Shown piece by piece: positions 171-20,320 of a stretch of 64,000 nucleotides of DNA; position 1 is the stretch's first letter; the number at the start of each line of letters is the position of its first letter. A model generated the notes under the pieces. That model did not search any database and was not told the origin of the DNA. It saw only the letters and a program-made list of their open reading frames with translations. Made by a program: the position numbers and the translations under genes. The stretch covers positions 11,229 through 75,228 of the forward strand of contig JBDRWD010000004.1 of NCBI GenBank assembly GCA_039802205.1, written 5' to 3'. This DNA is from a candidate division WOR-3 bacterium. Its GTDB lineage: Bacteria > Hydrothermota > Tepidihabitantia > SM23-42 > JAOAFX01.

Positions 171-932
171 ATGGATTTAATACGGCAGCTATATCTAAAA
201 TTTCAAAAGAAAAAATTTAATAAGCCGTTTCATCCGGTGGGTGTTGCCCGGAAGGAAAGTTTTCTGATTGTGCCTTCGGAGAGAATAAAGGAATTTCTGG
301 GGTCGCTTTCATTTATTGCCGGGATGAGAAAGTTGGGTGAGGTGCTTTTGCTTTTGCCCGAAACTTTTGGTATTTACCTCGAGTCTTTCCGGGTTAACTT
401 CTTCCAGATTATTTATTACCGGCGAGCCCCCCAGATATTGACCAGGGAATTTAAAGAGCTAAAAAATCAACTTAGCAAAATATCCTGTCGGTGGCTCATT
501 GACCTTAACCCCGAGCCCAATCCTTCATTGCCGGTTTTGGTACCGGTAGAAAAAAGAGTAGCATTTTACAACCAAAAATCATTTCCCCTATACAATATCC
601 TCATCAAAGGTGGTTTGAAGGGAATGGTAGATTTTTTCCAAATACCTAATATTGATCCTGTTTCCCTTTTCCGGTTTCCTAAAACTGAATTACGGGCAGT
701 CGCCCGGGAATTGCCTGAAAAGAAACCTTTGTTATTTGCTAATCAAATCGAAAGCCTCAGTGAAGTATTAGACCATTTGTCTTGGCCCGGGAGCGTAGTA
801 GTAAGCAAAAAAAATAAAGATGAGATTACTCGCGACCTAAAGAAACTTTATCTATGTGATGCCTATTTCGGTCCTGATGACGAAATATGCGAATTTGCCC
901 GGATTTTTAAAAAAGAGATTTTTACCAAATGA
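171..932 (+). CDS. Hypothetical protein, first gene of the signalling operon.
   Basis: 253-aa ORF with no recognisable motif. Its stop overlaps the start of the downstream GGDEF gene (ATGA at 929-932), which indicates translational coupling. Confidence 0.5.
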   Translation: MDLIRQLYLKFQKKKFNKPFHPVGVARKESFLIVPSERIKEFLGSLSFIAGMRKLGEVLLLLPETFGIYLESFRVNFFQIIYYRRAPQILTREFKELKNQLSKISCRWLIDLNPEPNPSLPVLVPVEKRVAFYNQKSFPLYNILIKGGLKGMVDFFQIPNIDPVSLFRFPKTELRAVARELPEKKPLLFANQIESLSEVLDHLSWPGSVVVSKKNKDEITRDLKKLYLCDAYFGPDDEICEFARIFKKEIFTK

Positions 933-2767
933 CTGATATTGCCCGGCGGTTAGACAATCTCATATACAAATTGAGCACCATTCCGATGTATCAACTGGAT
1001 GTCATACAGCTTGCGGAGTTTTTGGCAACACATTTAGCAAGTAAAGGTTGTCTGCTGCTTGCAGGAAATCGGATATTATACCAGCATAACCTTACTCCTG
1101 AGGCAGTCTCAAAATTCCAAGAGAATTTGTTTGCTGAAGACCTGGAAGTGAATGGTGTAAGATACAGACTTTTTCTAAAATTTGAACCCCGGGAAAGATT
1201 GCCTATTTCCATTAGGCAAAAACTAAAAAATTTGTTGGCGCTTATCCAGCAGATTCTGGGGGTGAGTAATATTGCGCGGGAGAGAATCAGTGAATTCCAG
1301 ATTATTAACGAATTAAATCTGAATGTGATTACGACTCTGGAGTTGCATAAAGTGATATGGTTTGTAGAGATTGCCGCAAAAAAACTCCTTGAGACGGAAA
1401 AGGTTTATTTGTATTATGCAATTGAAGACCAATTGGTAGGAAGAGAAAAGCGTATCTCAGTGAAAGTGCTTCCTCCCGAGATATACCGACAACTTTCTCG
1501 GAGTCGACAAGTGATGAAGTTAGATAAAACTAAAAATGGTTTTCTAAAGTCCTTTTTGCCTACGCTGGCTTCGGGGATGGTTTTGCTGGTGCCTTTCACG
1601 ATTAAAAATCGGGGGCGTGGCTTCTTTTTACTCGATGAATTTGAGAAGATGCCAAACGAAATAAACACAATAATGCGCCTTAAATTTTTGGGTAATCAGG
1701 CGGCGATCGCACTAGAAAGGATTGAATTATTCCAGGCATTGAACAAGGCACTCCAGGAGAGCAGAGGTTTGCAGGAGATTGCTAAACTTCTCTTATCACC
1801 CTACGAGTTGAAACATTTCTTCACCGAAGTTCTGCGTCGCGCCCAACAGATTCTGGGGTTTAAGAAAATCATGTGTTCGATTTACAATCCCGAAACCGGG
1901 ACTTTTGAAAGGTTCCATGGAGTTGGCATATCATTGAAAAAATTCCGGGAGGCGAAAAAGGTTCATCCTCCATACCAAGTGATAAAAGGTATTATGCAGG
2001 ATCGCTTTCGGATTTCCAATTCATACTACATACCCAGCGAAGAGGTAATGGAAGAAATAAGGGAATACGAAGTATACAAATCCGCCCATCGGCAGCAAAG
2101 GGTTCATGACTTATGGGCACCGGGTGATATTTTGATTAGTCCGATTTATTCGCGGGCCGGCGAGATACTCGGTATCCTCTCGCTTGCCGAACCGGTAGAT
2201 AATCGGATTCCCGATCGCAACAAAATCCGGTTACTGGAGGCATTCGGTGATTTTTTAGGCTTGGCGATAGAGAATAACCAACTTTTTGAAAAAATTTTGA
2301 TTGTTTCTTATACCGATGAACTCACCGGGGTATATAACTACCGATTTTTGCGTGAGAAGTTGCAGGAATTGATTGCCCGATCCCCTAAATCAATTGCGTT
2401 AGCGATGATTGATCTTGATCGGTTTAAAGAATACAATGACCAACACGGACACCTCGCCGGCGATCAACTGCTCCGCAAGATTTCTCAGATATTGCGTGAT
2501 GTTATAAAGGATGGATATATTACTCGCTACGGGGGCGATGAGTTCATCATCATCTTACCCGCGGCCGGTGCCCGGGCTATGCGTTTTCGGATTGAACAGG
2601 TCCGGAAGATCATACAGGAGGGGAAATCTTTCAAACAATCCATCCGGTTCTCCTGTGGAATCGCCGTGTATCCGGAGGATGGCCAAGACTTTGGGACGCT
2701 GATTGATACGGCGGATAAGCGTCTTTATCTGGAAAAGAAGAAAAAATATGAGATGGCTGTTTCGTAA
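929..2767 (+). CDS. Diguanylate cyclase with GAF-like sensor domains (GAF-GGDEF).
   Basis: The C-terminal GGDEF domain has the intact active-site motif RYGGDEFIIIL. It is preceded by LTGVYNYRFL and DLDRFKEYNDQHGHLAGD, both typical of the GGDEF fold. The N-terminal ~400 aa are GAF-like. Confidence 0.9.
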   Translation: MTDIARRLDNLIYKLSTIPMYQLDVIQLAEFLATHLASKGCLLLAGNRILYQHNLTPEAVSKFQENLFAEDLEVNGVRYRLFLKFEPRERLPISIRQKLKNLLALIQQILGVSNIARERISEFQIINELNLNVITTLELHKVIWFVEIAAKKLLETEKVYLYYAIEDQLVGREKRISVKVLPPEIYRQLSRSRQVMKLDKTKNGFLKSFLPTLASGMVLLVPFTIKNRGRGFFLLDEFEKMPNEINTIMRLKFLGNQAAIALERIELFQALNKALQESRGLQEIAKLLLSPYELKHFFTEVLRRAQQILGFKKIMCSIYNPETGTFERFHGVGISLKKFREAKKVHPPYQVIKGIMQDRFRISNSYYIPSEEVMEEIREYEVYKSAHRQQRVHDLWAPGDILISPIYSRAGEILGILSLAEPVDNRIPDRNKIRLLEAFGDFLGLAIENNQLFEKILIVSYTDELTGVYNYRFLREKLQELIARSPKSIALAMIDLDRFKEYNDQHGHLAGDQLLRKISQILRDVIKDGYITRYGGDEFIIILPAAGARAMRFRIEQVRKIIQEGKSFKQSIRFSCGIAVYPEDGQDFGTLIDTADKRLYLEKKKKYEMAVS

Positions 2768-3926
2768 GAAAGAAAAAGTTAGTCTTTTACCGGAAACGAG
2801 TGGTTTTACTTCGCGTACCCTTGTTATCTACTTTTTAATCGGGATCGGTGTTATTGGTGTTGTCACTTATGCTTATTCCACATTTCTAATGGGACGTATT
2901 AAGAGGGAGACCGAGACGACATCCCGGATTTTTGCCAGTTATGCCTCAGGACCAGGTGCCAGCGAAGAGGAATTGCTGGCTTTACTTTTTCGGGAGGTGA
3001 TTGAAAAGATTGACTTTCCGGTCGTCTTAACCGATGCTCAGGGGCAACCGTATTCAGCAAAAAATGTACCTGAAAAAGATCTGGGTAAAATCGTTAAAAA
3101 ACTCGACCGGGAACATCGACCGATTCCGATAGTCATCCGGACAGGTTCGGATTCGACAATCGTCGGCTATGTTCATTATGGTTTATCACCGTTCACCCGC
3201 TCATTGAAGATCTTGCCTTTTTTAATGACCGCTTTTCTTTTGGCATTTCTTTTTCTGGGGTTCTGGGGGTATTTGATTTATCGGAAGAGCGAAGAGGAAA
3301 AGATATGGTATTCCCTTGCCAAGGAAACTGCCCATCAACTTGCCACCCCTCTTTCTTCTCTTACCGGCTGGCTGGAGACTTTAAAAAGAAATGTTACACC
3401 CGAAATCTTTGAGGGTATTGTTGAGGATACCCAGAGGATGAAAGAAGTGCTGGAAAAATTTTCCCGTATCGGTATGCCCCCGCGGCTGATTGAAAAGGAC
3501 CCGATACCGGTGATCCAGAAGGCGGTGAGTTATATCAAACGGCGTGCCCACACTCAAATTAAGTTCATTGAAAATTATCGGCCTCTGCCGCCTATTAAAT
3601 TTGATGACATTCTTCTCGGCTGGGCAATAGAAAACATCTTGAAGAATGGTCTTGATGCCATTGGTCCCAAGCCTGGGACCATTTCAATAAAAACCGAGGC
3701 TGATGACCATAATGCGATCATTGAAATTGCTGATACCGGACCGGGAATCAAACAGGCAAAGGATATCTTTAAACCTGGATATACCACCAAAAAATATGGC
3801 TGGGGATTGGGACTGGTTTTGACAAAACGGATTGTTGAAGAGTACCACAAGGGCAAACTCACTTTAAAAAAGACCGGTCCGGGAGGCACGACTTTTCAGA
3901 TTTATATCCCAGGGAGTGGAAAATGA
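2748..3926 (+). CDS. Sensor histidine kinase, PorY-like. Two transmembrane segments flank a periplasmic sensor.
   Basis: H-box AHQLATPLSSLTGW. The HATPase_c domain has the N box ENILKNGLDA, the G1 box IADTGPGI and the G2 box GWGLGLVL. Hydrophobic segments lie at roughly residues 25-45 and 185-205. The start was chosen at ATG 2748, which overlaps the GGDEF stop; the alternative start is ATG 2703. Confidence 0.85.
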   Translation: MRWLFRKKEKVSLLPETSGFTSRTLVIYFLIGIGVIGVVTYAYSTFLMGRIKRETETTSRIFASYASGPGASEEELLALLFREVIEKIDFPVVLTDAQGQPYSAKNVPEKDLGKIVKKLDREHRPIPIVIRTGSDSTIVGYVHYGLSPFTRSLKILPFLMTAFLLAFLFLGFWGYLIYRKSEEEKIWYSLAKETAHQLATPLSSLTGWLETLKRNVTPEIFEGIVEDTQRMKEVLEKFSRIGMPPRLIEKDPIPVIQKAVSYIKRRAHTQIKFIENYRPLPPIKFDDILLGWAIENILKNGLDAIGPKPGTISIKTEADDHNAIIEIADTGPGIKQAKDIFKPGYTTKKYGWGLGLVLTKRIVEEYHKGKLTLKKTGPGGTTFQIYIPGSGK

Positions 3927-5431
3927 AAATATTATGGATTGATGATGAGATTGAACTTTTAAAACCTTTTATCTATTTGCTCAATCAAGAGGGCTATGAG
4001 GTGAAGACCGCAACCAGCGGTGAGGATGGTATCCGATTAGCCAGTCGCGAGGTTTTTGATCTCATCTTTCTTGACGAAATAATGCCCGGGGTAGACGGTT
4101 TAGAGGTTCTGCGAAGAATAAAACTTGATAATCCCCAGCAACTGGTGGTGATGGTCACCAAAAGCGAAGAAGAGGCATTGATGAAACAGGCATACAGCGG
4201 CTGGGTTGATGATTACATAACCAAACCCTTCAGTTTTAATCAAATTCTTTCGGTGTTGAACCGGATCCTTAAAAGACGCCACTTGATTGAAGAAAAAATG
4301 GCGGAAGATTATGCGAGTCAATTTAATGTCCTTGCTGAGCCCGAAGATTATAATGGTTGGATTGAGTATTATCGCAATTTGGTATCCTGGGATTTGCGGT
4401 TTCTGGAATACGGGAGCAAGGAGTTGAAGGAGATTCATAATGAACGAAAGCGGAGCGCCAATGCGGGTTTTACCAAGTATATCGTCCACAACTATCCAGA
4501 TTTTATTAAAGGTCGCGGCCCGATTCTCTCTAACAGCCTGTTTAAGACCGTGGTTTTCCCCACACTCCAGGAAGGGAGCTTGTTTTTTGTGATATTTGAT
4601 TCCATGCGTCTTGATCAGTATTTAAAGCTCCAGCCTTACTTGCGTGATTTCTTTGAAATAAATACTCAATATTATTTTTCCATTCTCCCGTCTGCCACAC
4701 CCTATTCCCGCAATAGTATATTCGCCGGGCTTTTACCCCTGGAGATTTTACAAGGGTATCCCCAATACTGGTTGTTTGAAGAGAAAGGGCAGAACCGGTT
4801 CGAAAAAGAGTTGTTTACAGAATTGCTGAAACGAAATAGTCTGAAAATAAATTTCAACTTTTATAAATTGTCGACCATTGAAGAAATCGAGAGGAATGTT
4901 TCTAAAATCGCTCAGGACCGGAGTGATATTACCATCGTGATAATTAACTTTTTTGATCTTTTGCTCCATTCTATTCCAGGTCGGGGTGATATGAAAGGAT
5001 TGCTTGATGATGAACGGATCTTACTCAATCTTTTAAGTTACTGGTTTCCTGTTTCACCGCTTTTTGAACTATTCAAAGCCATTGCTACTAAAAAACGGCG
5101 GATCATTCTCACCAGCGACCACGGTTTTATTCATGTGCGCCGACCCACGGTGGTTTATGGAGGCCGGGAAATTTCTCCCAATCTACGTTATAAATACGGT
5201 CCCGCACTCCGGGTGGATGAAAAAACCGCTCTGGTTTTGAATAATCCCGGAGCATTTTATCTGCCCGCCGAAGATGCCTCGGTTCGGTTTATAATCGCCA
5301 AAGAAGATTACTATTTTATTTACCCTACCAAACCCACGGAATATGAGCGGGAATTCAAGTATACTTTTCAGCATGGAGGTATCTCACTGGAGGAGATGAT
5401 TCTGCCGATAGGCTTTTTGCTACCCCGATGA
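3923..5431 (+). CDS. Response regulator with a CheY-like receiver domain fused to a PglZ (alkaline-phosphatase superfamily) effector domain, PorX-like.
   Basis: The N-terminal REC domain has DDE...D54-like LIFLDEIMPG, T and K (VMVTKS...YITKPF). The C-terminal ~350 aa carry IFDSMR, a nucleophile-motif position typical of AP-superfamily and PglZ domains, and LTSDHGF, a metal-binding DHG motif. The 502-aa length matches PorX (about 518 aa). ATGA overlaps the kinase gene. Confidence 0.8.
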   Translation: MKILWIDDEIELLKPFIYLLNQEGYEVKTATSGEDGIRLASREVFDLIFLDEIMPGVDGLEVLRRIKLDNPQQLVVMVTKSEEEALMKQAYSGWVDDYITKPFSFNQILSVLNRILKRRHLIEEKMAEDYASQFNVLAEPEDYNGWIEYYRNLVSWDLRFLEYGSKELKEIHNERKRSANAGFTKYIVHNYPDFIKGRGPILSNSLFKTVVFPTLQEGSLFFVIFDSMRLDQYLKLQPYLRDFFEINTQYYFSILPSATPYSRNSIFAGLLPLEILQGYPQYWLFEEKGQNRFEKELFTELLKRNSLKINFNFYKLSTIEEIERNVSKIAQDRSDITIVIINFFDLLLHSIPGRGDMKGLLDDERILLNLLSYWFPVSPLFELFKAIATKKRRIILTSDHGFIHVRRPTVVYGGREISPNLRYKYGPALRVDEKTALVLNNPGAFYLPAEDASVRFIIAKEDYYFIYPTKPTEYEREFKYTFQHGGISLEEMILPIGFLLPR

Positions 5432-5439
5432 GAGAAAAC

Positions 5440-5467
5440 TTGACAGGGAAAAGTTTTGCATTATAAT
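5440..5467 (+). promoter_or_regulatory. Sigma70-like promoter for the Hsp20 gene.
   Basis: TTGACA (5440-5445), a 16-nt spacer, then TATAAT (5462-5467). The ATG at 5473 lies only 5 nt after the -10 element, so the transcript is probably leaderless. Confidence 0.45.
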
Positions 5468-5472
5468 TTATC

Positions 5473-5916
5473 ATGAAAAATACCCGAGCGCGCGGCATGG
5501 AAAAACTGGAGGTTGCTGAAATAAAAGTGGTATTGAGGTCATTGGATGAAAGCATCGAAGAATCTGAGAGTGTGGAGCTGATTAACTGGGAACCATCTTA
5601 CGACTTATATATAGTGGATGAAACAATTTTCATCAGCATTGAACTACCGGGTGTGGAATTAAAAGATATCACCATCAATGTCGGTCAGAATTACATGATC
5701 GTGTCGGGCGTCAAACGTCCTTTGATTGTAAGACAACCTGGATATCGGAATGTAGTTTTTCACAACCTGGAAATTTCCTACGGTCGGTTTTTCCGGCGGA
5801 TTGATTTTCCATTACCGGTGGAGGCAAAAGACGGGGATTATAAGTTAGAAAGAGGCGTTTTGACGATAAAATTTCCGGTGTTAAAAGAACATATCATACC
5901 TATTGAGGAGGCTTAA
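5473..5916 (+). CDS. Hsp20 / alpha-crystallin family small heat-shock protein.
   Basis: The alpha-crystallin domain is present: YDLYIVDETIFISIELPGV...GVLTIKFP. There is an I-x-I-like C-terminal IIPI. Confidence 0.85.
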   Translation: MKNTRARGMEKLEVAEIKVVLRSLDESIEESESVELINWEPSYDLYIVDETIFISIELPGVELKDITINVGQNYMIVSGVKRPLIVRQPGYRNVVFHNLEISYGRFFRRIDFPLPVEAKDGDYKLERGVLTIKFPVLKEHIIPIEEA

Positions 5917-5918
5917 CG

Positions 5919-8258
5919 ATGGAGGAAAAAGAGATAACAATTCCTGAGGAACTGGGTATTATTCCGATAAAAGGGGGCGTAATATTCCCGGATCAGATGG
6001 TCCCTTTAATCATCCAGACTCCCAAACTTGCAAAATTGATCGATGAAATACTCACCACCAATAAGCTGGCGGGTGCGATCACCCAGCGTAATCCCGATGT
6101 GGAGGAACCCAAGCCTGAAGAGATTTATCAGGTAGGTTGCGTCATTCAGATTACCAAGATGTTGCGATTCCCGGATGGGACGATTAGGCTTTTGGTGCGG
6201 GGATTGAAGCGTTTTCGTGTTTTAGAATTTACCCAAGTCGAACCCTACTTGAAGGCGAAGATTCAACTTTATCCTGACGGCTACAAGAAGACCATGTCGA
6301 TTGAGGCTCTGATGCGAAATGTCGTGACCATGTTTCAACAACTCGTTTCTTTGGCACCCTATCTACCAGATGAGCTGGGTGCAATCGTTTTGAATATCGA
6401 TGATCCGGACCGCCTGATAAATTTTGTCACCGGTTATACCAATCTGGAGGTTAGTGAAAAACAGGCAATACTGGAGATCGCTGACCCCAAAGATCGATTT
6501 TTGAAACTGATCCCCCTTTTACAAAAAGAAATAAGCATTCTCGAGTTAGGTGCCAAGATCCGTTCCCAGGTGAAGAGTGAGTTTGATAAAGGTCAGAAAG
6601 AGTTTTATCTTCGGGAACAGTTAAAAGCGATTCAACGGGAATTGGGCGAGACCGATGAACATACCCGAGAGATTGAAGAATTGAGGAAGAAGATTCAAGA
6701 AGCCAAGATGCCTGAGAATGTAGAGAAGGTGGCGTTAAAAGAACTCGACCGCCTCGCTAAGATGCCACCCCAGGCTGCCGAGTATACGGTTTCCCGTACC
6801 TACTTGGACTGGTTGATCTCCTTACCATGGTCGGTGGCTACCGAGGATAATCATGATCTGGCAAGGGCAAAGAGGATTTTGGATGAAGATCACTACAATT
6901 TAGAAAAAGTAAAAGAGCGTATTCTGGAATACCTGGCGGTGAAAAAATTAAAACCCGATTCTAAAGGAACGATTCTCTGTTTTATCGGTCCACCTGGAGT
7001 GGGCAAGACTTCCCTGGGCAGGTCCATTGCCCGGGCATTGGGCCGGAAGTTTGTGAGGATATCCCTGGGAGGTATCAGGGATGAGGCGGAGATCCGGGGA
7101 CACCGGAGGACATATATTGGTGCATTGCCGGGCCGGATCATCCAGTCCATTAAGACCTGTGGTTCTAAAAATCCGGTGTTTATGCTCGACGAGATTGATA
7201 AGATTGGTACGGATTTTCGGGGGGATCCATCTAGTGCCCTTTTAGAGGTTCTGGATCCAGAACAAAATTATGCCTTTTCCGACCATTATTTGGAGGTTCC
7301 ATTTGATTTATCAAATGTGATGTTCATAGCTACTGGCAATCTCATTGATCCGATCATACCGGCGCTTAAAGACCGGATGGAGATTATTGAACTGCCAGGC
7401 TATATCCTTGAAGAAAAAGTTGAGATTGCCAAAAAATACTTAATCCCGCGGCAGATTGCCGAATGCGGACTGAAACCAGAGAATATCCAATTTGAAGAAT
7501 CAGCAATAAAGATGATAATAAACAATTACACCAAAGAAGCCGGGGTACGAAACTTAGAACGGGAGATTGGTTCAATATGCCGTAAGGTGGCACGGCGGTT
7601 TGCGGAAGGTAAGAAAAAACCGGTCCGTATCGATGAAAAAAACCTCGTAGAATTCCTGGGTCCACCAAAGATATTCTCCGAAGTTGCAGCCCGGAAAGGA
7701 GAAGTAGGATTGGCAACCGGGCTTGCCTGGACACCAACCGGCGGAGAGATTATCTTCATTGAATCGTTGAAAGTCCGGGGTAAAAAAGGATTGATTCTTA
7801 CCGGGTTACTCGGGGATGTGATGAAAGAATCCTGTCAAGCCGCGGTTTCCTATCTGAAAACCAAATTTGAAAAATGGGGTATAAAAGAAAATTTAGATGA
7901 ATACGATTTGCATATTCACATTCCTTCCGGTGCTATTCCCAAGGATGGTCCTTCAGCTGGATTGGCGGTGATTGTGGCACTAAGTTCTCTTTTTAGAAAC
8001 CAGCCAGTGGATCCCAAGATTGCCTTCACCGGTGAGATCACCCTCACCGGCCGGGTGCTTCCGGTAGGCGGTATTAAAGAAAAGGTAATCGCAGCAAAGC
8101 GGGCAGGCATTGATACAATCTTCTTGCCCGAAGAAAATAAAAAAGATTTACTGGAAATACCCGCACATGTGAAAAAGGGATTGACCTTTAAATTTGTTAA
8201 AAAGATTGATCAGGCACTGAACGAAGTTTTTAAAGACCACCAAAAAATGAAATCCTGA
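5919..8258 (+). CDS. lon: ATP-dependent Lon protease (La).
   Basis: N-terminal LON domain, Walker A GPPGVGKTS, and the serine protease active site PKDGPSAGLA. Confidence 0.95.
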   Translation: MEEKEITIPEELGIIPIKGGVIFPDQMVPLIIQTPKLAKLIDEILTTNKLAGAITQRNPDVEEPKPEEIYQVGCVIQITKMLRFPDGTIRLLVRGLKRFRVLEFTQVEPYLKAKIQLYPDGYKKTMSIEALMRNVVTMFQQLVSLAPYLPDELGAIVLNIDDPDRLINFVTGYTNLEVSEKQAILEIADPKDRFLKLIPLLQKEISILELGAKIRSQVKSEFDKGQKEFYLREQLKAIQRELGETDEHTREIEELRKKIQEAKMPENVEKVALKELDRLAKMPPQAAEYTVSRTYLDWLISLPWSVATEDNHDLARAKRILDEDHYNLEKVKERILEYLAVKKLKPDSKGTILCFIGPPGVGKTSLGRSIARALGRKFVRISLGGIRDEAEIRGHRRTYIGALPGRIIQSIKTCGSKNPVFMLDEIDKIGTDFRGDPSSALLEVLDPEQNYAFSDHYLEVPFDLSNVMFIATGNLIDPIIPALKDRMEIIELPGYILEEKVEIAKKYLIPRQIAECGLKPENIQFEESAIKMIINNYTKEAGVRNLEREIGSICRKVARRFAEGKKKPVRIDEKNLVEFLGPPKIFSEVAARKGEVGLATGLAWTPTGGEIIFIESLKVRGKKGLILTGLLGDVMKESCQAAVSYLKTKFEKWGIKENLDEYDLHIHIPSGAIPKDGPSAGLAVIVALSSLFRNQPVDPKIAFTGEITLTGRVLPVGGIKEKVIAAKRAGIDTIFLPEENKKDLLEIPAHVKKGLTFKFVKKIDQALNEVFKDHQKMKS

Positions 8259-8259
8259 G

Positions 8260-9303
8260 ATGTTGCTGCTGTTATTGACGACCATAAAATGGCAAGCGGC
8301 TTATCTTCCTTTTGATGATTCTACTTACATCTTAAATCTTTGCTTAGAAATCCCACCCCAAATTTTACGATTTACCAATCTGGATTCGGTAGCGATGGCA
8401 ACCTATGAAATCCAACTTTTGGTATTCGATCGAAAGGGTAATCAGCTCACCGGGGAGTACTGGTATCGGGAAAAAGAAAGGACGACCGAAAATTTATATG
8501 ATTCGTTAAAAATCCGGATTCCCGCACGTTCAAAAAAGTTTCAGCTAAAGATTCTGGATTTGCAAGGATCCGAGTTATTGAATGTAAAAGAAAATATTAA
8601 CCTTTTAAGTTATATCGCGAATATCCGTTCCCGGCTGCTCGGGGATACACTTTGGGTAACTTTCACCATTCTCAATCAGCAAGGCAATGCTGAGTGGATG
8701 CTGGTTGAGTTTCATGGAATGAAGAAGACTGAATTGCTGGAAAAGGGAATTTATGATGATACAGTGGGATTTTATGTTGCACCACTATCCAATGGGAATT
8801 ATGAATTACACCTCCAGGTGAAAAAAGGGGAAGGTAATCTTGAAAATACGGTGATCCCGGTGGTGATCGATCGGCCGTTCTATCTGGATGATAAGACCTG
8901 GTATCTGAAAGTCGCTCAACTGGAGTATATCGCTACACCTGGAGAAATGGATCAGCTGAGAAAAGCCCGCATAGAGGAGCGTGATTCGCTGTGGCGGACT
9001 TTCTGGAAGCAGTACGACCCAACGCCGAATACCGAATATAATGAAAAAGAAGCCGAATATTTTGAACGCATTGCCTATGCCGAGGAACATTTTTCTTTTG
9101 GGGATAAGGGGTGGCGGAGCGACCGGGGTCGGATATATGTTAAATACGGTCCACCCGATGAGATTCAATCCCGTCCTTATGAACTTTCCACCAAGCCTTA
9201 TGAAATCTGGTTCTACTATCGATTGAATTTGAAGTTTATTTTCTATGACCGTCATGGATTCGGTGAGTATATTCTTATCAACCCCCATGGAGAAAGAATA
9301 TGA
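8260..9303 (+). CDS. GWxTD-domain protein, paralog 1.
   Basis: C-terminal GWRSDRGRIYVKYGPPDEI...YEIWFY, which matches the GWxTD-domain core (GWxTDRG...YGPPD). Confidence 0.6.
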   Translation: MLLLLLTTIKWQAAYLPFDDSTYILNLCLEIPPQILRFTNLDSVAMATYEIQLLVFDRKGNQLTGEYWYREKERTTENLYDSLKIRIPARSKKFQLKILDLQGSELLNVKENINLLSYIANIRSRLLGDTLWVTFTILNQQGNAEWMLVEFHGMKKTELLEKGIYDDTVGFYVAPLSNGNYELHLQVKKGEGNLENTVIPVVIDRPFYLDDKTWYLKVAQLEYIATPGEMDQLRKARIEERDSLWRTFWKQYDPTPNTEYNEKEAEYFERIAYAEEHFSFGDKGWRSDRGRIYVKYGPPDEIQSRPYELSTKPYEIWFYYRLNLKFIFYDRHGFGEYILINPHGERI

Positions 9304-10583
9304 ATTTGCTGGTGAGTCTATTCAGCACCATTAATTTTTTTGTCCAGCCGGTATTGTATCACACCCCATTGACGACGATGGATTCCTCAGGTGCTGAAAC
9401 CCGGATCGAAAATATATTTTATCTGGAGTTCAACTGTGCCATTCCTTATAATGAACTTTTTTATCGTGAAATTGGGGGCAAAATAATTGCTGATTGTGGA
9501 GTAAAATTGAAGATAGTTAACCGGAGACTGGCTGATTCGCTTTTGGACTCTTTAAGTTATCAATTCACCATTCCCTCTTTTTCCCAAGCGGCTAAGGAGC
9601 AGATGGTATTCTATCTCCAGTTTGGCCGGTATCTTACCCAGGGCGAATATGACTGGTCAGTCACCGTTAGTTGCCAGGATAAATACGGTAAGGTCCAAGG
9701 AAGGCGAGCGATTTCGGAATTGGATTATCTGATGAGCGATATCCTGTTAGCCCAATCGATTACTCAGGATACTACCGGCGGTTTTTTGACCAAGGGTAAT
9801 CTGCGCGTGGTACCTAATCCATCAGGAATTTTTGAGTCAAAAGCGAAAAATCTTTTTATTTACTACGAACTATACAATATTAAAATTGCTGGAGACAGTT
9901 TGCGGGTGACTTATCTTATCACCGACTCCCACAAAAAAACCGTAAGGAAAATAACCAGGTATGTCGCAAAAAAGTTTTCCCGACAGGCGTTGAATTTGGG
10001 GATAAATATTGAAGCGTTGAAGCCCGATTCTTATCAACTTACTGTCATGGTGGACGATTCCGTAAACTCCCGGCATCTTGCCAAACAAGTAGATTTTCAA
10101 ATCCAGGAGGCAAAAGTCCAACCGCTGGAGATAACTACCGAAGATTTGCCTTATTACGAGGCGATTGAGTATTTTGTCAGTCCGCAAGAATATAAGCACT
10201 TTCAGGGTTTGGATGGAGAGGGAAAGAAATTGTATCTGAAGAAATTCTGGCAGAAACATAACTATCAAGAGATAGCCCAAAGGTATGAATATGCGGACGC
10301 ACATTTTCAGGAGGGATATTTGGCTGGCTCCAAAACCGACCGCGGGCGAATTTACATAAAATACGGACCACCGGATGAGGTGGATAATAAACAATTTGAA
10401 GAAGCCAAGCCTTATGAATACTGGCAGTATTACAACGGCTTGGAGTTTATCTTTGTTGATGTCCGGGGAACGCAGGAGTATATTCTGGTCTGGACGAATG
10501 CCCCAGATGAAAAATCCAAACCCGGACTATATCGGTATTTGCCAGTTTTTAAAAGGCGGGAAATAGGTGAAGATAAGGAGTGA
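9300..10583 (+). CDS. GWxTD-domain protein, paralog 2.
   Basis: C-terminal GSKTDRGRIYIKYGPPDEV...YEYWQY. ATGA overlaps paralog 1. The shared motifs indicate a tandem duplication. Confidence 0.6.
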   Translation: MNLLVSLFSTINFFVQPVLYHTPLTTMDSSGAETRIENIFYLEFNCAIPYNELFYREIGGKIIADCGVKLKIVNRRLADSLLDSLSYQFTIPSFSQAAKEQMVFYLQFGRYLTQGEYDWSVTVSCQDKYGKVQGRRAISELDYLMSDILLAQSITQDTTGGFLTKGNLRVVPNPSGIFESKAKNLFIYYELYNIKIAGDSLRVTYLITDSHKKTVRKITRYVAKKFSRQALNLGINIEALKPDSYQLTVMVDDSVNSRHLAKQVDFQIQEAKVQPLEITTEDLPYYEAIEYFVSPQEYKHFQGLDGEGKKLYLKKFWQKHNYQEIAQRYEYADAHFQEGYLAGSKTDRGRIYIKYGPPDEVDNKQFEEAKPYEYWQYYNGLEFIFVDVRGTQEYILVWTNAPDEKSKPGLYRYLPVFKRREIGEDKE

Positions 10584-15781: not shown

Positions 15782-18700
15782 ATGATTAAAATAAAAATCT
15801 TGGCACCATTGTTAATCCTACCGTCACTTATTTTTTCACTACACATAACTGTTCCGGTGGACCAACTCAATTATACAATTTCTGATTTTGAAGGATACAA
15901 AAAAATCTGTTTGGAAAATGGTGTAACAGTCGGAAATCCGGGGAGCCCGGAGATTCCTTCTTTTGTTTATACCCTATTTTTACCTACCAATCAAAAGATT
16001 AAAAATGTGAATATCGCTGCCGCCGAATGGGAAGAAATTGCTGGCGAGTATCTCTTATTTCCAGTACAGCCTCCAGCACTCCTCAATGGACCATTGAAAT
16101 TTTTTGGTCCGGATTCCGAGATTTACCAGTATCCCGGATTTTATCCAGAAAATCTGGTTATTGCTTTTCATTCCGGGAATCTTCGGGGGTATCACCTCGG
16201 GCAAATTTTAATTGCCCCTTTTAGATATGAGCCAATAACAAAAAAACTCTATGTTCTCAGGAAATTGGTTTTAGATATTGAGACCGAACCTTATGCTGGA
16301 GGGATAAAGCCATATCGGCAGACAAGGTTTTCCCAGAAGATATTTGAGAATATACTCCAAACTATGTCCCAATTTAAATTTTTGGGAGGGACTATCCATC
16401 ACCCAGAGGTATCGATTGAAGATAATACGGAAGATCTGTTACCTTCTGATTTACCATCTTTTTCAGGGACTCCATTAGACTTAATTATAGTCACGACTGA
16501 ACCCTTTGTTCCAGTTTACGAAGAATTTCTGCGTTATAAAAAACTATTCGGGTTTAATGGTGTAATCAAGACAATGGAATGGATCAGGAATCATTATTTG
16601 GGAGTGGATGATGCAGAGAAATTGCGCAATTTTATCAGAGATGCGGTAGAAAAATGGGGGGTGAGTTTTGTTTTACTGGGCAATGATGTGCCAGATATTC
16701 CTACCCGCTGGGTATGGGTGGATTATGTGATGGGATCGTATCCGGCTCATTTCACCACCGACCTTTATTATTCCGACCTTGATGGCAACTGGAATTTTGA
16801 TGGCGATGAACAGTTTGGAGAGGTCTCGGATTCCATTGATCTTTATCCTGATGTCTTTGTAGGAAGAATTCCTGCCCATGTTCCAGATGATGTGGAGCAT
16901 TATCTCAACAAGACCCTTTCCTATCTTTTTGCTCTCCAGACGCCTCCCAATTCTAACGAATCCTGGCAGCGTCAGGCATTATTTGTCACAAGTATGTTCT
17001 GGTCTCAGAATGACTCTTATTATATCGCCCGTAATCAATTGAGTCCCCTCTTACCTGGCAATTTTGGAAGAAATTTTTTTAACGAAAGCTCAAAACAACA
17101 GATCCTTCGGGGCATAAAAGAAGGTTACAATCTTATTACTTGGCTTGCCCATGGTGATGTTAACCTTTTGCGAGCAAGGACAACTCCTCGAGAATATGTC
17201 TCCAATTTTGATTTTGACTCTTTGGCTAATAACATCTATCCATTTATGGTGGTCATCTCTTGCTTTACCGGACCATTCCAGGAAGATTGCCTGGGCGAGC
17301 ACTGGGTGATGAATTCCCATGGTGGCGGTATTGGATACATTGGGCCAACTAGTTCCAGTGCAGCTTATAATCATATCGATTATATAAGGACTCTATTCCC
17401 CAATCTTTTTTCTGAACCCCTCAGTGTCTCCCTAGCTTTTAGCAAGATCCCGTGGATTCCCTATGCTCAGTTTGATAACTGGCATCGGGTATTTCAGTAT
17501 TCGCTTAATTTACTTGGAGACCCAACTTTGAAATTATGGTCGGTGGTGCCACATCGGATAGATTCGGTTTTGGTAGACCCGGACACCTTAAATGTAGGAT
17601 ATGATACCTTGACTTTACATATCTTCCCCATGATTGAAAGATTTGAGGTAGTATACTACAAGGAAAATGAAGTATTTTTAAAAGATTCAGGTTTTGTCGG
17701 TATTGCGGTAACCCCTCTGCGCACCCGTTCAACAGGTTTTTTGAAATACACGATAATTGCCGATGGCTGTGTGCCTTATATTGATTCTTTATATGTGCTG
17801 CCATTATCCGGTTACCTTGTCTACCAGGGGCAGCGGGTTGTGGATACTCTTGGGAATGGTGATGGTATTCCCAATCCAGGAGAGATTATTGATCTTTTCA
17901 TTGGTTTGCGTAATACAGGCACTCAGCCTTTGGATTCAGTTTTTTTGCGGATTGCTTCTTTGGATAGTTTTGTTACTATTCTGGTGGATACGGCGCGGTA
18001 TGGCGTTATCATGCCGGGTGGGGTGGAGGAGAATCTCACGCCTTTACGGATTGCGATAGGTCCTTGGACGCCGGATGGATATGAGGTTTATTTGGCTTTG
18101 GATATTGGTGGTTTTTATTCTGATTCCTGTAGTTTTACGGTTGAAGCACCGGTGTTAAGGCTCTTTACCCAGGATTATATTTTGGATGGCGGAGTTTATA
18201 AGGTTTTGCCGGTTGTTGAGAATTGCGGAAGTGGTGATGCGGATTCGGTTTATGCATTGGTCAGGAGTTATTCGGATACAGTGGTAGTTTTGGACAGTCT
18301 GGTTTATTTTGGAGGAGTGAGTTCGGGTCATGTTGTTTCTGCACGAGATACTTTTCGTTTAATGTTGAATTATCCGGGTCGGGTTGTTTATAGTTTTGCG
18401 CTTTACAGTCGGGGTTGGCAGGCTGAAGAACGGCAGGTGGTTTTGGGTAGGCCTATGCGGGTGGATTCGCTTTGGGCGTTTGGTACTCCTAATTCTGTTG
18501 TTTTGAATTGGGTTATGGTTTCTGGTGCGGTTGGCTATAGGATATATCGGGCGTTGGAACCGAATGGTGATTTTGAGTATATTGGGAATCCCCTTACGCG
18601 GGTGAGTTATTATGAGGATTTGGGAGTGGAGTTGGGGCGGGATTATTATTATTATGTGGTGGCCGTGGATTCTTCGTTGAATCAGGGATATGCTTCGGAT

Positions 18701-20320
18701 ACGATAAAGGCGCGGGTTAATCCTGCGGTGGCTTTGGGTTGGCCACGGATGGTTTTTGGTTACTTATTTTCTTCACCCAATTTTGGTGATTTGGATCCGG
18801 ATTATCCGGGATTGGAGGTGGTGGTTTCTTCGCGGAATGGGGATGTTTACATGTGGCATTGTGATGGCACGCCGGTGGGTATAGATCCATATGGGCGAAT
18901 ATTTTCTTGTAATTCCGAGATTTGGTCTTCGCCGGCGGTGGGCGATGTGGACAGGGATGGCAATTTAGAGATCTGTCTTGGGATAAGGCGGTGGGGAGAG
19001 AATCTTTATATTTTGCGGAGATCCGGAATTAGTTGGATTCCTATGGATAATTGGCCCAAGAGTCTTGATGGTTCGATAATTGGTTCACCAGTATTAGCGG
19101 ATATTGATAATGATGAAGATTTAGAGGTATTTGTTATAACAGAGGCTGGAAGGTTCTATGTATTTCATCATACAGGTGAAGGTGTTTATTCCCCAGATGG
19201 AATATTAAAAGTTTTATATGGGTGGCATGGAGGCTCGCCAGCGGTGGGTGATTTAAATAACGATGGGGATTTAGAGATAGTTGCATGTGGTGGTTCACAA
19301 TCAGACTCTTTATTTATTTGGGATCGTCATGGTAATTATTTTGGTGTCTTTCCTAAGCAGGTGGCGGCAAAGATGTGTTATTCGCCGGTTTTGGGTGATG
19401 TGATTGGGGATGGTTCGCTGGAGATTTGTTTTTATACGGATTCTACAGACATGGTCCATCTGTTAGATATGAATGGGAATTTGGTATGGCAGAGATATAT
19501 CCCGGCGTTGGGTGATGTTGAGGGGTACCCGGTGCTCGCGAATGTGGTTGGGGATGGGCGTCCAGAGGTGGTTGTGGGCAGCAATCGGGGTTCGATGTTT
19601 CTTTCGGTGTTAGATTCGTTGGGTAATATAGTTTCAGGTTTTCCGGTTTCGTTGGGTTGGGAGTTTAAGTTACCAGTGGTTGGAGATGTGGATGGTGATG
19701 GTATGATGGATTTGGTTTGTGGAGCTGGTGATTGGAATTTGTATGCGTTTCATAGTAATGGTGGGTTGGTTAGTGGTTATCCAATTCATTTTGGTATTCG
19801 GATTGAACAATCGCCGGCACTTTACGATATTGATCAGGATGGTAAGTTGGAGTTGATGATTGGCGCGAATGATTATCGATTTTGGGTTTTTGATTTAGAT
19901 GGGCAGTTTTTCGAATGGCCTAAGTTTCGTTATGATCCTTATAATTCGGGTTGTTATAAGTCGCTTTACTGGGCGAATGTTGGAGAAGTTATTACAAAGA
20001 GCGGTGGTGATAGATTTTATTTTGGGGTCTATCCCAATCCTTTTAAGGATCGTTGTGTGATCCGTTTAAAGATTCCGAGCAGCAAGTTGGTTGGTCAAAA
20101 CAGGGAGGCGGTTAAAGATTTTAGCCTTGTGGTTTATGATGTTTTGGGACGTCAGGTGAGGATGTTTAATCTGGATCCTGCAAGGCTGGATCAAATATCA
20201 GACATTATCTGGGATGGTTCGGATAATCTGGGCCGGAAATTACCATCGGGAATTTATTTTGTTCGTCTGAAAGTGGGTCAGTTGAATGTGATCAGGAAAG
20301 CAATTCTTTTGAATCATTGA
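15782..20320 (+). CDS. Peptidase C25 (gingipain-like) family protein with FG-GAP/VCBS repeats and a T9SS C-terminal domain.
   Basis: Features of the C25 catalytic domain are present: LLGNDVPDIPTRW, FTTDLYYSDLDGNWN, DVFVGRIP, the His candidate in TWLAHGD, and the Cys candidate in VVISCFTGP. At least 7 FG-GAP repeats of the pattern SP.LGD.D.DG.LE follow. The C-terminal domain ends NPFKDR...VVYDVLGRQV...SGIYFVRL. There is a signal peptide. Confidence 0.75.
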   Translation: MIKIKILAPLLILPSLIFSLHITVPVDQLNYTISDFEGYKKICLENGVTVGNPGSPEIPSFVYTLFLPTNQKIKNVNIAAAEWEEIAGEYLLFPVQPPALLNGPLKFFGPDSEIYQYPGFYPENLVIAFHSGNLRGYHLGQILIAPFRYEPITKKLYVLRKLVLDIETEPYAGGIKPYRQTRFSQKIFENILQTMSQFKFLGGTIHHPEVSIEDNTEDLLPSDLPSFSGTPLDLIIVTTEPFVPVYEEFLRYKKLFGFNGVIKTMEWIRNHYLGVDDAEKLRNFIRDAVEKWGVSFVLLGNDVPDIPTRWVWVDYVMGSYPAHFTTDLYYSDLDGNWNFDGDEQFGEVSDSIDLYPDVFVGRIPAHVPDDVEHYLNKTLSYLFALQTPPNSNESWQRQALFVTSMFWSQNDSYYIARNQLSPLLPGNFGRNFFNESSKQQILRGIKEGYNLITWLAHGDVNLLRARTTPREYVSNFDFDSLANNIYPFMVVISCFTGPFQEDCLGEHWVMNSHGGGIGYIGPTSSSAAYNHIDYIRTLFPNLFSEPLSVSLAFSKIPWIPYAQFDNWHRVFQYSLNLLGDPTLKLWSVVPHRIDSVLVDPDTLNVGYDTLTLHIFPMIERFEVVYYKENEVFLKDSGFVGIAVTPLRTRSTGFLKYTIIADGCVPYIDSLYVLPLSGYLVYQGQRVVDTLGNGDGIPNPGEIIDLFIGLRNTGTQPLDSVFLRIASLDSFVTILVDTARYGVIMPGGVEENLTPLRIAIGPWTPDGYEVYLALDIGGFYSDSCSFTVEAPVLRLFTQDYILDGGVYKVLPVVENCGSGDADSVYALVRSYSDTVVVLDSLVYFGGVSSGHVVSARDTFRLMLNYPGRVVYSFALYSRGWQAEERQVVLGRPMRVDSLWAFGTPNSVVLNWVMVSGAVGYRIYRALEPNGDFEYIGNPLTRVSYYEDLGVELGRDYYYYVVAVDSSLNQGYASDTIKARVNPAVALGWPRMVFGYLFSSPNFGDLDPDYPGLEVVVSSRNGDVYMWHCDGTPVGIDPYGRIFSCNSEIWSSPAVGDVDRDGNLEICLGIRRWGENLYILRRSGISWIPMDNWPKSLDGSIIGSPVLADIDNDEDLEVFVITEAGRFYVFHHTGEGVYSPDGILKVLYGWHGGSPAVGDLNNDGDLEIVACGGSQSDSLFIWDRHGNYFGVFPKQVAAKMCYSPVLGDVIGDGSLEICFYTDSTDMVHLLDMNGNLVWQRYIPALGDVEGYPVLANVVGDGRPEVVVGSNRGSMFLSVLDSLGNIVSGFPVSLGWEFKLPVVGDVDGDGMMDLVCGAGDWNLYAFHSNGGLVSGYPIHFGIRIEQSPALYDIDQDGKLELMIGANDYRFWVFDLDGQFFEWPKFRYDPYNSGCYKSLYWANVGEVITKSGGDRFYFGVYPNPFKDRCVIRLKIPSSKLVGQNREAVKDFSLVVYDVLGRQVRMFNLDPARLDQISDIIWDGSDNLGRKLPSGIYFVRLKVGQLNVIRKAILLNH

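Follow-up and report, generated by a model that had tools for sequence, protein, structure and literature searches.

The closest described relatives of the locus reported here are PorX and PorY of Porphyromonas gingivalis and PorX of Flavobacterium johnsoniae, which have been studied as type IX secretion system (T9SS) regulators. P. gingivalis PorX is a zinc-dependent phosphodiesterase that is activated by phosphorylation of its receiver domain and dimerization, and it cleaves cA3, cA4, and cA6 as well as linear pApA, pApG, and pGpG (PMC9757075). Because P. gingivalis has a diguanylate cyclase but no EAL or HD-GYP enzyme, cyclic di-GMP (c-di-GMP) was considered first, and the physiological substrate was left open (PMC9757075); in the published work, cyclic oligoadenylates are judged unlikely to be PorX substrates in cells, and pGpG and nanoRNAs are only speculated upon. 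Phosphorylated F. johnsoniae PorX binds the motor protein GldL (PMC10951265). The porX and porY genes are unlinked in P. gingivalis, and deletion of porY does not phenocopy deletion of porX, which has raised doubt as to whether PorY is the physiological kinase (PMC4800418, PMC11320123, PMC10951265). Here, we describe a PorX locus in a 64,000-nucleotide stretch of DNA (hereafter, the window) from a candidate division WOR-3 bacterium (assembly GCA_039802205.1, contig JBDRWD010000004.1, positions 11,229 to 75,228), in which overlapping genes code for a small protein (ORF1), a diguanylate cyclase, a PorY-like histidine kinase, and PorX.

We conclude that the locus is a predicted PorY-PorX two-component system of WOR-3, in which the coupled kinase-PorX pair appears to be the conserved core across WOR-3. 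One WOR-3 clade adds ORF1 and a dedicated sensor cyclase, with the entire block appended to tig-clpP-clpX. A first-pass annotation of the window had viewed the locus against Porphyromonas and Bacteroidetes; the organism belongs to candidate division WOR-3, not to Bacteroidota, and the closest database proteins (97 to 100% identical) are from WOR-3, Stahlbacteria, or TA06 metagenome-assembled genomes (MAGs). In the literature searched, we found no paper on a T9SS in WOR-3, T9SS regulation being treated there as a Bacteroidota topic, and no description of either a porX-GGDEF operon or a porY-porX operon. PorX, PorY, and GGDEF cyclases are already known, and cyclase genes beside two-component systems are common in bacteria; new are the phylum, the operonic kinase-PorX pair, and a cyclase family dedicated to the operon. 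The WOR-3 loci bear on two PorX questions, namely whether PorY is its kinase, and what the substrate of the PglZ domain is in cells.

PorX, its kinase, and the adjoining cyclase

Four open reading frames (ORFs) were read directly from the sequence, at the coordinates and with the 4-, 20-, and 4-nucleotide overlaps that the first-pass annotation gave:

171 to 932, + strand: ORF1, 253 amino acids; it always precedes the cyclase gene, or the kinase gene where the cyclase gene is absent
929 to 2767, + strand: cytoplasmic sensor diguanylate cyclase, 612 amino acids; three GAF-like modules connected through long helices precede a GGDEF domain whose active site is intact and which lacks an RxxD inhibitory site (I-site)
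2748 to 3926, + strand: PorY-like sensor histidine kinase, 392 amino acids; a first transmembrane segment (TM1), an extracytoplasmic loop of ~100 amino acids, a second transmembrane segment (TM2), HisKA (His196), and HATPase_c, without HAMP
3923 to 5431, + strand: predicted PorX; a receiver domain and a helical bundle, followed by a PglZ phosphodiesterase domain of the alkaline-phosphatase superfamily

The ATGA at positions 929-932 is common to the ORF1 stop codon and the cyclase start codon, the kinase ATG at 2748 is 20 nucleotides ahead of the cyclase stop at 2767, and a further ATGA at 3923-3926 is common to the kinase stop and the PorX start. The longest ORF for the kinase starts with a TTG at 2703, but ortholog alignments begin near 2748, favoring the latter. 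Because the reading frames overlap, the four genes are translationally coupled.

By each of the sequence tests applied, the regulator is a true PorX ortholog. It matches the NCBIfam PorX equivalog NF052313 at 529.9 bits (cutoff, 300), with residues 2-500 aligned to profile positions 2-511 of 513, and it has Pfam matches to Response_reg (83 bits) and PglZ (47 bits), in agreement with the receiver-PglZ architecture initially assigned to it. The suggested comparison with PorX structures is equally clear, as the protein aligns over its full length with PorX from both F. johnsoniae (8TED) and P. gingivalis (7PV7), at E values of about 1e-105, the best solved homolog being 8TED (E = 1.7e-105). The register of the alignment with the P. 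gingivalis protein is set by chain 7PVK, a T272A mutant of that protein, whose residues D58, D239, T272, R276, N358, D361, H365, D415, and H416 correspond to D51, D226, T259, R263, N342, D345, H349, D399, and H400 in the window. D51 is the phospho-acceptor (D58 in P. gingivalis and D54 in F. johnsoniae) and is accompanied by the receiver residues D8, T79, and K101, all of which are invariant in 74 WOR-3 PorX proteins. The same 74 proteins are invariant at D226, T259, R263, D345, H349, D399, H400, and H484, among which are the threonine nucleophile and the zinc ligands; N342 is conserved but is replaced by serine in two of the 74, both in the second of the WOR-3 clades described below.

PglZ domains are a hallmark of BREX (bacteriophage exclusion) systems, and we considered whether the protein might belong to an anti-phage system rather than being a secretion regulator. 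It does give weak matches to BREX_PglZ_3 of NCBIfam (67.8 bits against a cutoff of 250) and to PglZ of PADLOC (47 bits). However, the PorX equivalog scores 530 bits, the order of receiver, helical bundle, and PglZ domain is that of the solved PorX proteins, and there are no BrxC, PglX, or other defense genes in the operon or among its conserved neighbors; a role in BREX was ruled out on these grounds, and we assign it a negligible probability.

The kinase has hydrophobic segments at residues 20-48 and 151-178, His196 within an H-box, and HisKA and HATPase_c domains (Pfam and hydropathy). TM2 is followed at once by the DHp helix, and HAMP, PAS, and GAF domains are lacking. P. gingivalis PorY has 395 residues, with its kinase core beginning at about residue 179, and so has the same layout as the 392-residue WOR-3 kinase (PMC4800418). 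The best NCBIfam matches are to generic kinases (AtoS, 97 bits). The presence of a PorY-like kinase beside a PorX-like regulator, as first annotated, is nonetheless borne out by the size and architecture of the protein and by the overlap of the two genes.

The cyclase has the features of an active diguanylate cyclase, as was originally noted from its intact GGDEF motif. The GGDEF domain matches Pfam at 124 bits, and the protein contains the motifs DELTG (463), DLDRFKEYND (495), GHLAGD (507), RYGGDEF (533-539), and ADKRLY (595); the active-site residues, including D495, N503, D504, D512, and K603, are invariant in 34 orthologs. At the I-site position, five residues before GGDEF, the sequence is IKDG rather than RxxD, and the family consensus is x-K-x-G, so canonical product inhibition appears to be absent. 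The GAF part of the proposed GAF-GGDEF architecture is less direct, since the GAF matches of the window protein (19.6 to 25 bits) fall just under the Pfam cutoffs (22.4 to 28.6), although an ortholog in locus L033 matches strongly (117 bits). An AlphaFold2 model (mean predicted local distance difference test score [pLDDT], 82.6) has three alpha/beta sensor modules with long helices leading to the GGDEF domain, and its best Foldseek matches are phytochrome-type tandem-sensor (PAS-GAF-PHY) cyclases (5LLX, E = 1e-20).

Conservation of the locus across WOR-3

We fetched 80 species-representative loci around PorX homologs (44 to 90% identity) and mapped the window proteins onto them. All 80 belong to MAGs assigned to candidate division WOR-3, Stahlbacteria, or TA06, and the PorX sequences form two WOR-3 clades: that of the window, in which PorX is at least 62% identical to the window protein (39 loci; 35 informative species), and another in which it is 44 to 52% identical (39 informative loci). 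A kinase gene immediately precedes porX in 69 of the 75 informative WOR-3 loci. In almost all of the WOR-3 genomes examined, the gene for a PorY-like kinase overlaps that for PorX, as is classically seen for cognate partners. In the other clade, the kinase and PorX genes stand by themselves as a pair at 33 of the 39 informative loci, with opposite-strand neighbors encoding an AddAB-like nuclease and a DUF6754 protein; we found no ORF1, cyclase, clp, T9SS, or signaling genes near kinase-PorX in that clade. One subclade of six loci (L070, L075, L077, L078, L079, and L080) has PorX without an adjacent kinase, an orphan as in Bacteroidota.

In the window's clade, the genes are arranged on one strand in the order tig-clpP-(clpX)-ORF1-(cyclase)-kinase-PorX, with clpX and ORF1 often overlapping by four nucleotides; the identities of trigger factor, ClpP, and ClpX in the relatives were confirmed by Pfam. 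In the window itself, only 18 nucleotides separate the clpX stop codon from the start of ORF1. The locus is therefore not the self-contained four-gene operon that it was first taken to be. Both flanks vary. In one subclade (L015, L019, L020, L025, L027, L028, L029, L032, L034, L093, and L094), clpX is missing between clpP and ORF1, having apparently moved elsewhere while ORF1 stayed. On the other side, the ORF1-cyclase-kinase-PorX-hsp20 block sits between clpX and lon in the window and in L001-L006, L031, L038, and L081-L084, but lon is downstream only in the window's subclade, other subclades having unrelated opposite-strand genes at this position. Because clpX is missing in one subclade and hsp20-lon is found only in another, and yet the gene order is kept, the cyclase-kinase-PorX core is more stable than its surroundings. 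Identities to the window proteins over 34 loci are strongly correlated (Spearman rho for PorX of 0.91 with the cyclase, 0.83 with the kinase, and 0.94 with ORF1), and conservation ranks PorX over the kinase, the kinase over the cyclase, and the cyclase over ORF1.

ORF1 is present in every informative locus of the window's clade whether or not there is a cyclase gene, and is thus a more faithful companion of kinase-PorX, or of clpX, than the cyclase is. Neither the window protein, nor 15 family members, nor distant profile matches have a match in Pfam, NCBIfam, or PADLOC. A glycosyltransferase (GT-B/GT9) was considered, and a weak resemblance to a GT-B-like fold was found. Among 1.84 billion proteins the family has 28 representatives at E values of 1e-3 or below, about 21 of which share the same architecture of 245 to 270 residues, and ORF1 is a clade-restricted protein. 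In one locus (L012; CP070834.1, 1-8515, in a MAG recorded as a complete chromosome), an inversion seemed to split tig-clpP-clpX-ORF1 from kinase-PorX, from which we had inferred that ORF1 belongs to the clp unit. However, the inverted segment lies between two runs of N and the ORF1 halves abut the gaps, as in a mis-oriented contig; a natural inversion was ruled out, and the assignment of ORF1 to the clp unit was withdrawn.

The cyclase and its possible tie to PorX

The cyclase gene occupies the slot between ORF1 and the kinase gene in 24 of the 35 informative species of the window's clade, including the deepest branch (L033 and L035, with an 834-residue version), such that the linkage of a GGDEF protein, a histidine kinase, and a response regulator noted in the window is kept in related genomes. 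The species without the cyclase fall in more than one lineage of the PorX tree. Moreover, L017, which is sister to the cyclase-bearing L011, has a 129-residue ORF between ORF1 and the kinase gene (L017:8496-8885) with matches to the cyclase profile over ~90 positions at the N terminus and ~25 at the C terminus (E = 1.2e-5); we interpret this as an internally deleted cyclase remnant, a gene loss apparently caught in the act. Because of the absences in several lineages together with this remnant, the distribution is best read as ancestral presence of the cyclase in the clade followed by repeated loss. A split cyclase in L038 was also considered as a pseudogene, but the split coincides with a gap of 10 Ns, and this was ruled out.

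As a reciprocal test, metagenomes were scanned with an anchor on the cyclase sensor region only. The kinase gene is next in all 18 of the cyclase loci with downstream flank (16 of which reach PorX), and ORF1 is present in all 18 with upstream flank; among these metagenome loci we found no cyclase ortholog in any other context. GGDEF genes outside the slot are few, with only three in 1.21 Mb of related loci, of which two adjoin PorX downstream. Because GGDEF genes are rare in the related loci, and the arrangement has been inherited across dozens of species, the linkage of the cyclase is not due to chance. A cyclase family confined to this slot also offers independent genomic support for a link between PorX and c-di-GMP or pGpG. 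In two related species, a second GAF-GGDEF gene is convergent with porX and lies just after it (L007:11939-13888 and L008:10685-12637, both - strand).

Functional coupling of the cyclase to PorXY is plausible from these patterns, and we put at somewhat better than even the chance that the c-di-GMP output of the cyclase and the phosphorylation of PorX are coordinated in controlling type IX secretion and surface behavior. In such a coordinated system, cotranscription would ensure that the cyclase is made together with PorY and PorX; the cyclase would turn a cytoplasmic cue into c-di-GMP, the kinase would turn an envelope cue into PorX phosphorylation, and the two signals would jointly set secretion and surface behavior. 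By analogy with the P. gingivalis enzyme, the likeliest point of contact is that phosphorylated, dimeric PorX would hydrolyze the linear pGpG that arises when c-di-GMP is linearized; removal of pGpG by PorX would complete c-di-GMP turnover and prevent its build-up. The linearizing enzyme would have to be encoded at a site unlinked to the locus, and c-di-GMP itself is probably not a PorX substrate. In this clade, the cyclase would be an accessory, and not an obligatory, input to PorXY.

Several observations weigh against coordination of this type. The cyclase gene is missing in 11 of the 35 informative species of the window's clade (31%), where ORF1 directly precedes the kinase gene, and is absent throughout the other clade (39 informative loci); the earlier suggestion that the locus hard-wires c-di-GMP synthesis to a PglZ regulator is accordingly too strong. 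Because some species have lost it, the cyclase is dispensable, and PorX works without it. Genes that overlap are hard to rearrange, so that conserved synteny by itself exaggerates their functional linkage, and the proposed coordination draws on gene order in uncultured genomes. The kinase is a putative PorY ortholog: no PorY-specific curated model matched the full protein, and the sensor region alone matched nothing. Although the P. gingivalis biochemistry invoked in the first-pass annotation was accurate as to cleavage of pGpG, that PorX cleaves neither c-di-GMP nor other cyclic dinucleotides (PMC9757075), and in crystals of F. johnsoniae PorX pGpG was not bound (PMC11320123). A connection to the cyclase would thus run through pGpG and need an unlinked EAL or HD-GYP enzyme, and no EAL, HD-GYP, or PilZ gene is present among the window ORFs of at least 150 amino acids.

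The substrate pocket of PorX is also relevant. In the T272A crystal of P. gingivalis PorX, the guanines of bound pGpG are contacted by E302, K305, N306, L307, and Y332 (PMC9757075), and only N306 is kept in the window protein (N291). The other guanine-contact residues are changed, a further point against pGpG hydrolysis as the point of contact: E302 falls within a two-residue deletion, K305 is replaced by Q290, L307 by R292, and Y332 by S317. These residues belong to the substrate pocket and do not define the PorX family. The WOR-3 contact loop, G-Q-N-R (PorX residues 289-292; window positions 4787-4798), is two residues shorter than the G-K-N-L loop of Bacteroidota, and is invariant or nearly so in the 74 WOR-3 PorX proteins, in both clades and whether the cyclase is present or absent. 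This suggests that WOR-3 has a phylum-specific PorX substrate pocket, and, because the guanine-contact residues are not conserved, substrate preference is not simply transferable from P. gingivalis PorX. Across the same 74 proteins, no alignment column was found that separates cyclase-linked from cyclase-free PorX, which also counts against coordination. In its sequence, PorX does not look adapted to the cyclase.

These features bear on whether the locus might encode a closed enzymatic loop, with the cyclase making c-di-GMP, kinase-activated PorX acting as its dedicated phosphodiesterase (on pGpG, or on c-di-GMP directly in WOR-3), and the nucleotide level gating either the T9SS motor or T9SS gene expression. 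Such a loop is attractive in that members of the cyclase family were encountered in this slot alone and the cyclase, lacking an I-site, needs an external product sink; P. gingivalis PorX both binds and cleaves pGpG, the distinct and invariant G-Q-N-R loop leaves room for another specificity, and a second GAF-GGDEF gene adjoins PorX in L007 and L008. However, the P. gingivalis enzyme does not cleave c-di-GMP, PorX has been retained through repeated losses of the cyclase, and no linked c-di-GMP effector, EAL, or HD-GYP gene was found. In addition, the G-Q-N-R loop is not an adaptation to the cyclase, because it is identical in the PorX of cyclase-free genomes and clades. We regard a closed loop as unlikely. 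It is more doubtful again that in this clade PorX, switched by the kinase, provides the last or only phosphodiesterase of a private c-di-GMP circuit that the I-site-less cyclase feeds, and that the nucleotide level directly gates the T9SS motor. If this were true, the PglZ domain would gain a physiological substrate, and c-di-GMP a degrading class outside of EAL and HD-GYP.

Alternatively, the cyclase gene could be a passenger, inserted once between ORF1 and the kinase gene in the ancestor of the clade and kept there by tight packing, sharing a transcript with PorXY without any specific functional tie to PorXY or the T9SS. This would account for its dispensability (with the same 11 of 35 species lacking it), for the lack of PorX co-adaptation, and for the much faster evolution of the cyclase (40 to 72% identity to the window) than of PorX (72 to 90%); the block is also appended to the housekeeping genes tig-clpP-clpX, and unrelated genes can thus be strung together here. 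Yet the order of cyclase, kinase, and PorX is held down to ~40% cyclase identity even though both flanks have been reshuffled, no ortholog was found to have moved elsewhere, and the active-site residues are still invariant. Extra GGDEF genes also adjoin PorX in two loci (L007 and L008) despite the rarity of GGDEF genes elsewhere. We regard a passenger cyclase as unlikely, to the same degree as a closed loop.

Lastly, the cyclase might act upstream of PorX phosphorylation, with c-di-GMP or the cyclase protein itself binding the kinase or PorX and modulating phosphotransfer, such that the GAF sensor feeds a cytoplasmic signal to the kinase. Control of histidine kinases by c-di-GMP is established in other bacteria, for example with CckA and ShkA, and the WOR-3 kinase, in which TM2 leads directly to the DHp helix, has no cytoplasmic sensor domain of its own; the 20-nucleotide overlap of the cyclase stop and kinase start is also in keeping with such an arrangement. 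However, neither the kinase nor PorX was seen to carry a c-di-GMP-binding motif, and conservation of the kinase is high whether the cyclase is present or absent; we think such an upstream role very unlikely. We thus favor coordination of the cyclase output with PorX phosphorylation, for which the T9SS genes of the window provide the setting.

Surrounding genes and comparison with known systems

The window contains the following features outside of the four genes:

3 to 152, + strand: 3' end of clpX, cut by the window edge (last 49 codons and stop codon), translated as the ClpX C terminus; the orthologous position in relatives has a 405-amino-acid ClpX (zf-C4_ClpX, AAA_2) after ClpP and trigger factor
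5440 to 5467, + strand: predicted promoter, a sigma-70 consensus match only (TTGACA, 16 nucleotides, TATAAT; 12 of 12 matches)
5473 to 8258, + strand: hsp20 (5473-5916) and lon (5919-8258), from Pfam; this downstream synteny is kept only in the window's own subclade
12254 to 35190: eight predicted T9SS cargo genes, for S8, C25, M28, and S15 peptidases and others, with Por_Secre_tail and/or FlgD_ig
40773 to 46214, + strand: SprA/Sov-like T9SS translocon candidate, 1813 amino acids; SprA_N at 72.6 bits, to the C-terminal part of the model only (positions 370-509)

The SprA-like translocon and eight T9SS cargo proteins that the first-pass annotation listed in the window are confirmed by matches to SprA_N, Por_Secre_tail, and FlgD_ig. 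The cargo proteins (12254-35190) are mostly peptidases, and their C-terminal sorting domains are of the Por_Secre_tail type in seven, with only an FlgD_ig-type domain in one. The SprA-like protein may be a divergent or shortened translocon relative to SprA/Sov of Bacteroidota. One of the cargo genes (15782-20320) codes for a C25 (gingipain-family) peptidase of 1,512 amino acids and has a GC skew of 0.44 and an AT skew of -0.28 over 2 kb (18001-20000); a DNA tandem repeat was ruled out as the basis for this, the cause being a G/D/V-rich run of FG-GAP-type repeats in the cargo protein.

The predicted promoter at 5440-5467 is just past the PorX stop codon and ends five nucleotides before the hsp20 start codon. 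It would set a natural 3' limit to the operon and open hsp20-lon, which seems to be served by a strong promoter of its own immediately past the porX gene. At positions 13-40, inside the 3' end of clpX and ~130 nucleotides upstream of ORF1, there is a weak promoter-like element (TTGTGG, 16 nucleotides, TATAAT) that was read by eye and falls under the scan threshold. Two neighboring genes after lon (8260-10583) code for GWxTD-domain proteins and overlap by four nucleotides; within the window's subclade, both are retained along with lon.

Although the organisms are uncultured, the locus offers a compact set of three or four proteins for joint work in vitro, and several described systems provide points of reference. 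With P. gingivalis PorX and PorY (PGN_1019 and PGN_2001; 7PV7, 7PVA, and 7PVK), it shares the three-part architecture of PorX with its phospho-acceptor aspartate, threonine nucleophile, and zinc ligands, the size and layout of the kinase (two transmembrane segments, an outside loop, HisKA, and HATPase), and the presence of T9SS cargo and translocon genes in the genome. It differs in phylum, in that the kinase and PorX genes are adjacent and overlapping in WOR-3 rather than unlinked orphans, in having G-Q-N-R, two residues shorter, in place of the E..GKNL loop, and in that the cyclase and ORF1 are co-operonic only in the WOR-3 locus. F. johnsoniae PorX (Fjoh_2906; 8TED and 8P6F) is the best-scoring solved homolog and its catalytic site is conserved; by homology, the phosphorylated WOR-3 receiver would be expected to bind GldL/PorL. 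Unlike in WOR-3, F. johnsoniae porX has not been reported to be adjacent to a kinase or cyclase gene.

If PorX degrades pGpG in vivo, it would resemble the pGpG-degrading enzymes (Orn in Pseudomonas aeruginosa; NrnA, NrnB, and NrnC) in performing second-step removal of an inhibitor of c-di-GMP linearizing enzymes. Those are DEDD or DHH exonucleases, whereas PorX belongs to the zinc-dependent alkaline-phosphatase superfamily and is switched by phosphorylation. As with the REC-GGDEF fusions PleD and WspR (in which REC denotes the receiver domain) and with SiaABCD, a phosphorelay and c-di-GMP synthesis are encoded together, which would coordinate signals from the envelope or surface with second-messenger levels; by contrast, the WOR-3 cyclase carries a GAF-type sensor of its own and lacks a receiver, and the output of the regulator is a predicted phosphodiesterase of another superfamily. 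Finally, the order of the genes flanking the block in the window's subclade is that of tig-clpP-clpX-lon in Escherichia coli, but WOR-3 differs in having ORF1, the cyclase, the kinase, PorX, and hsp20 between clpX and lon.

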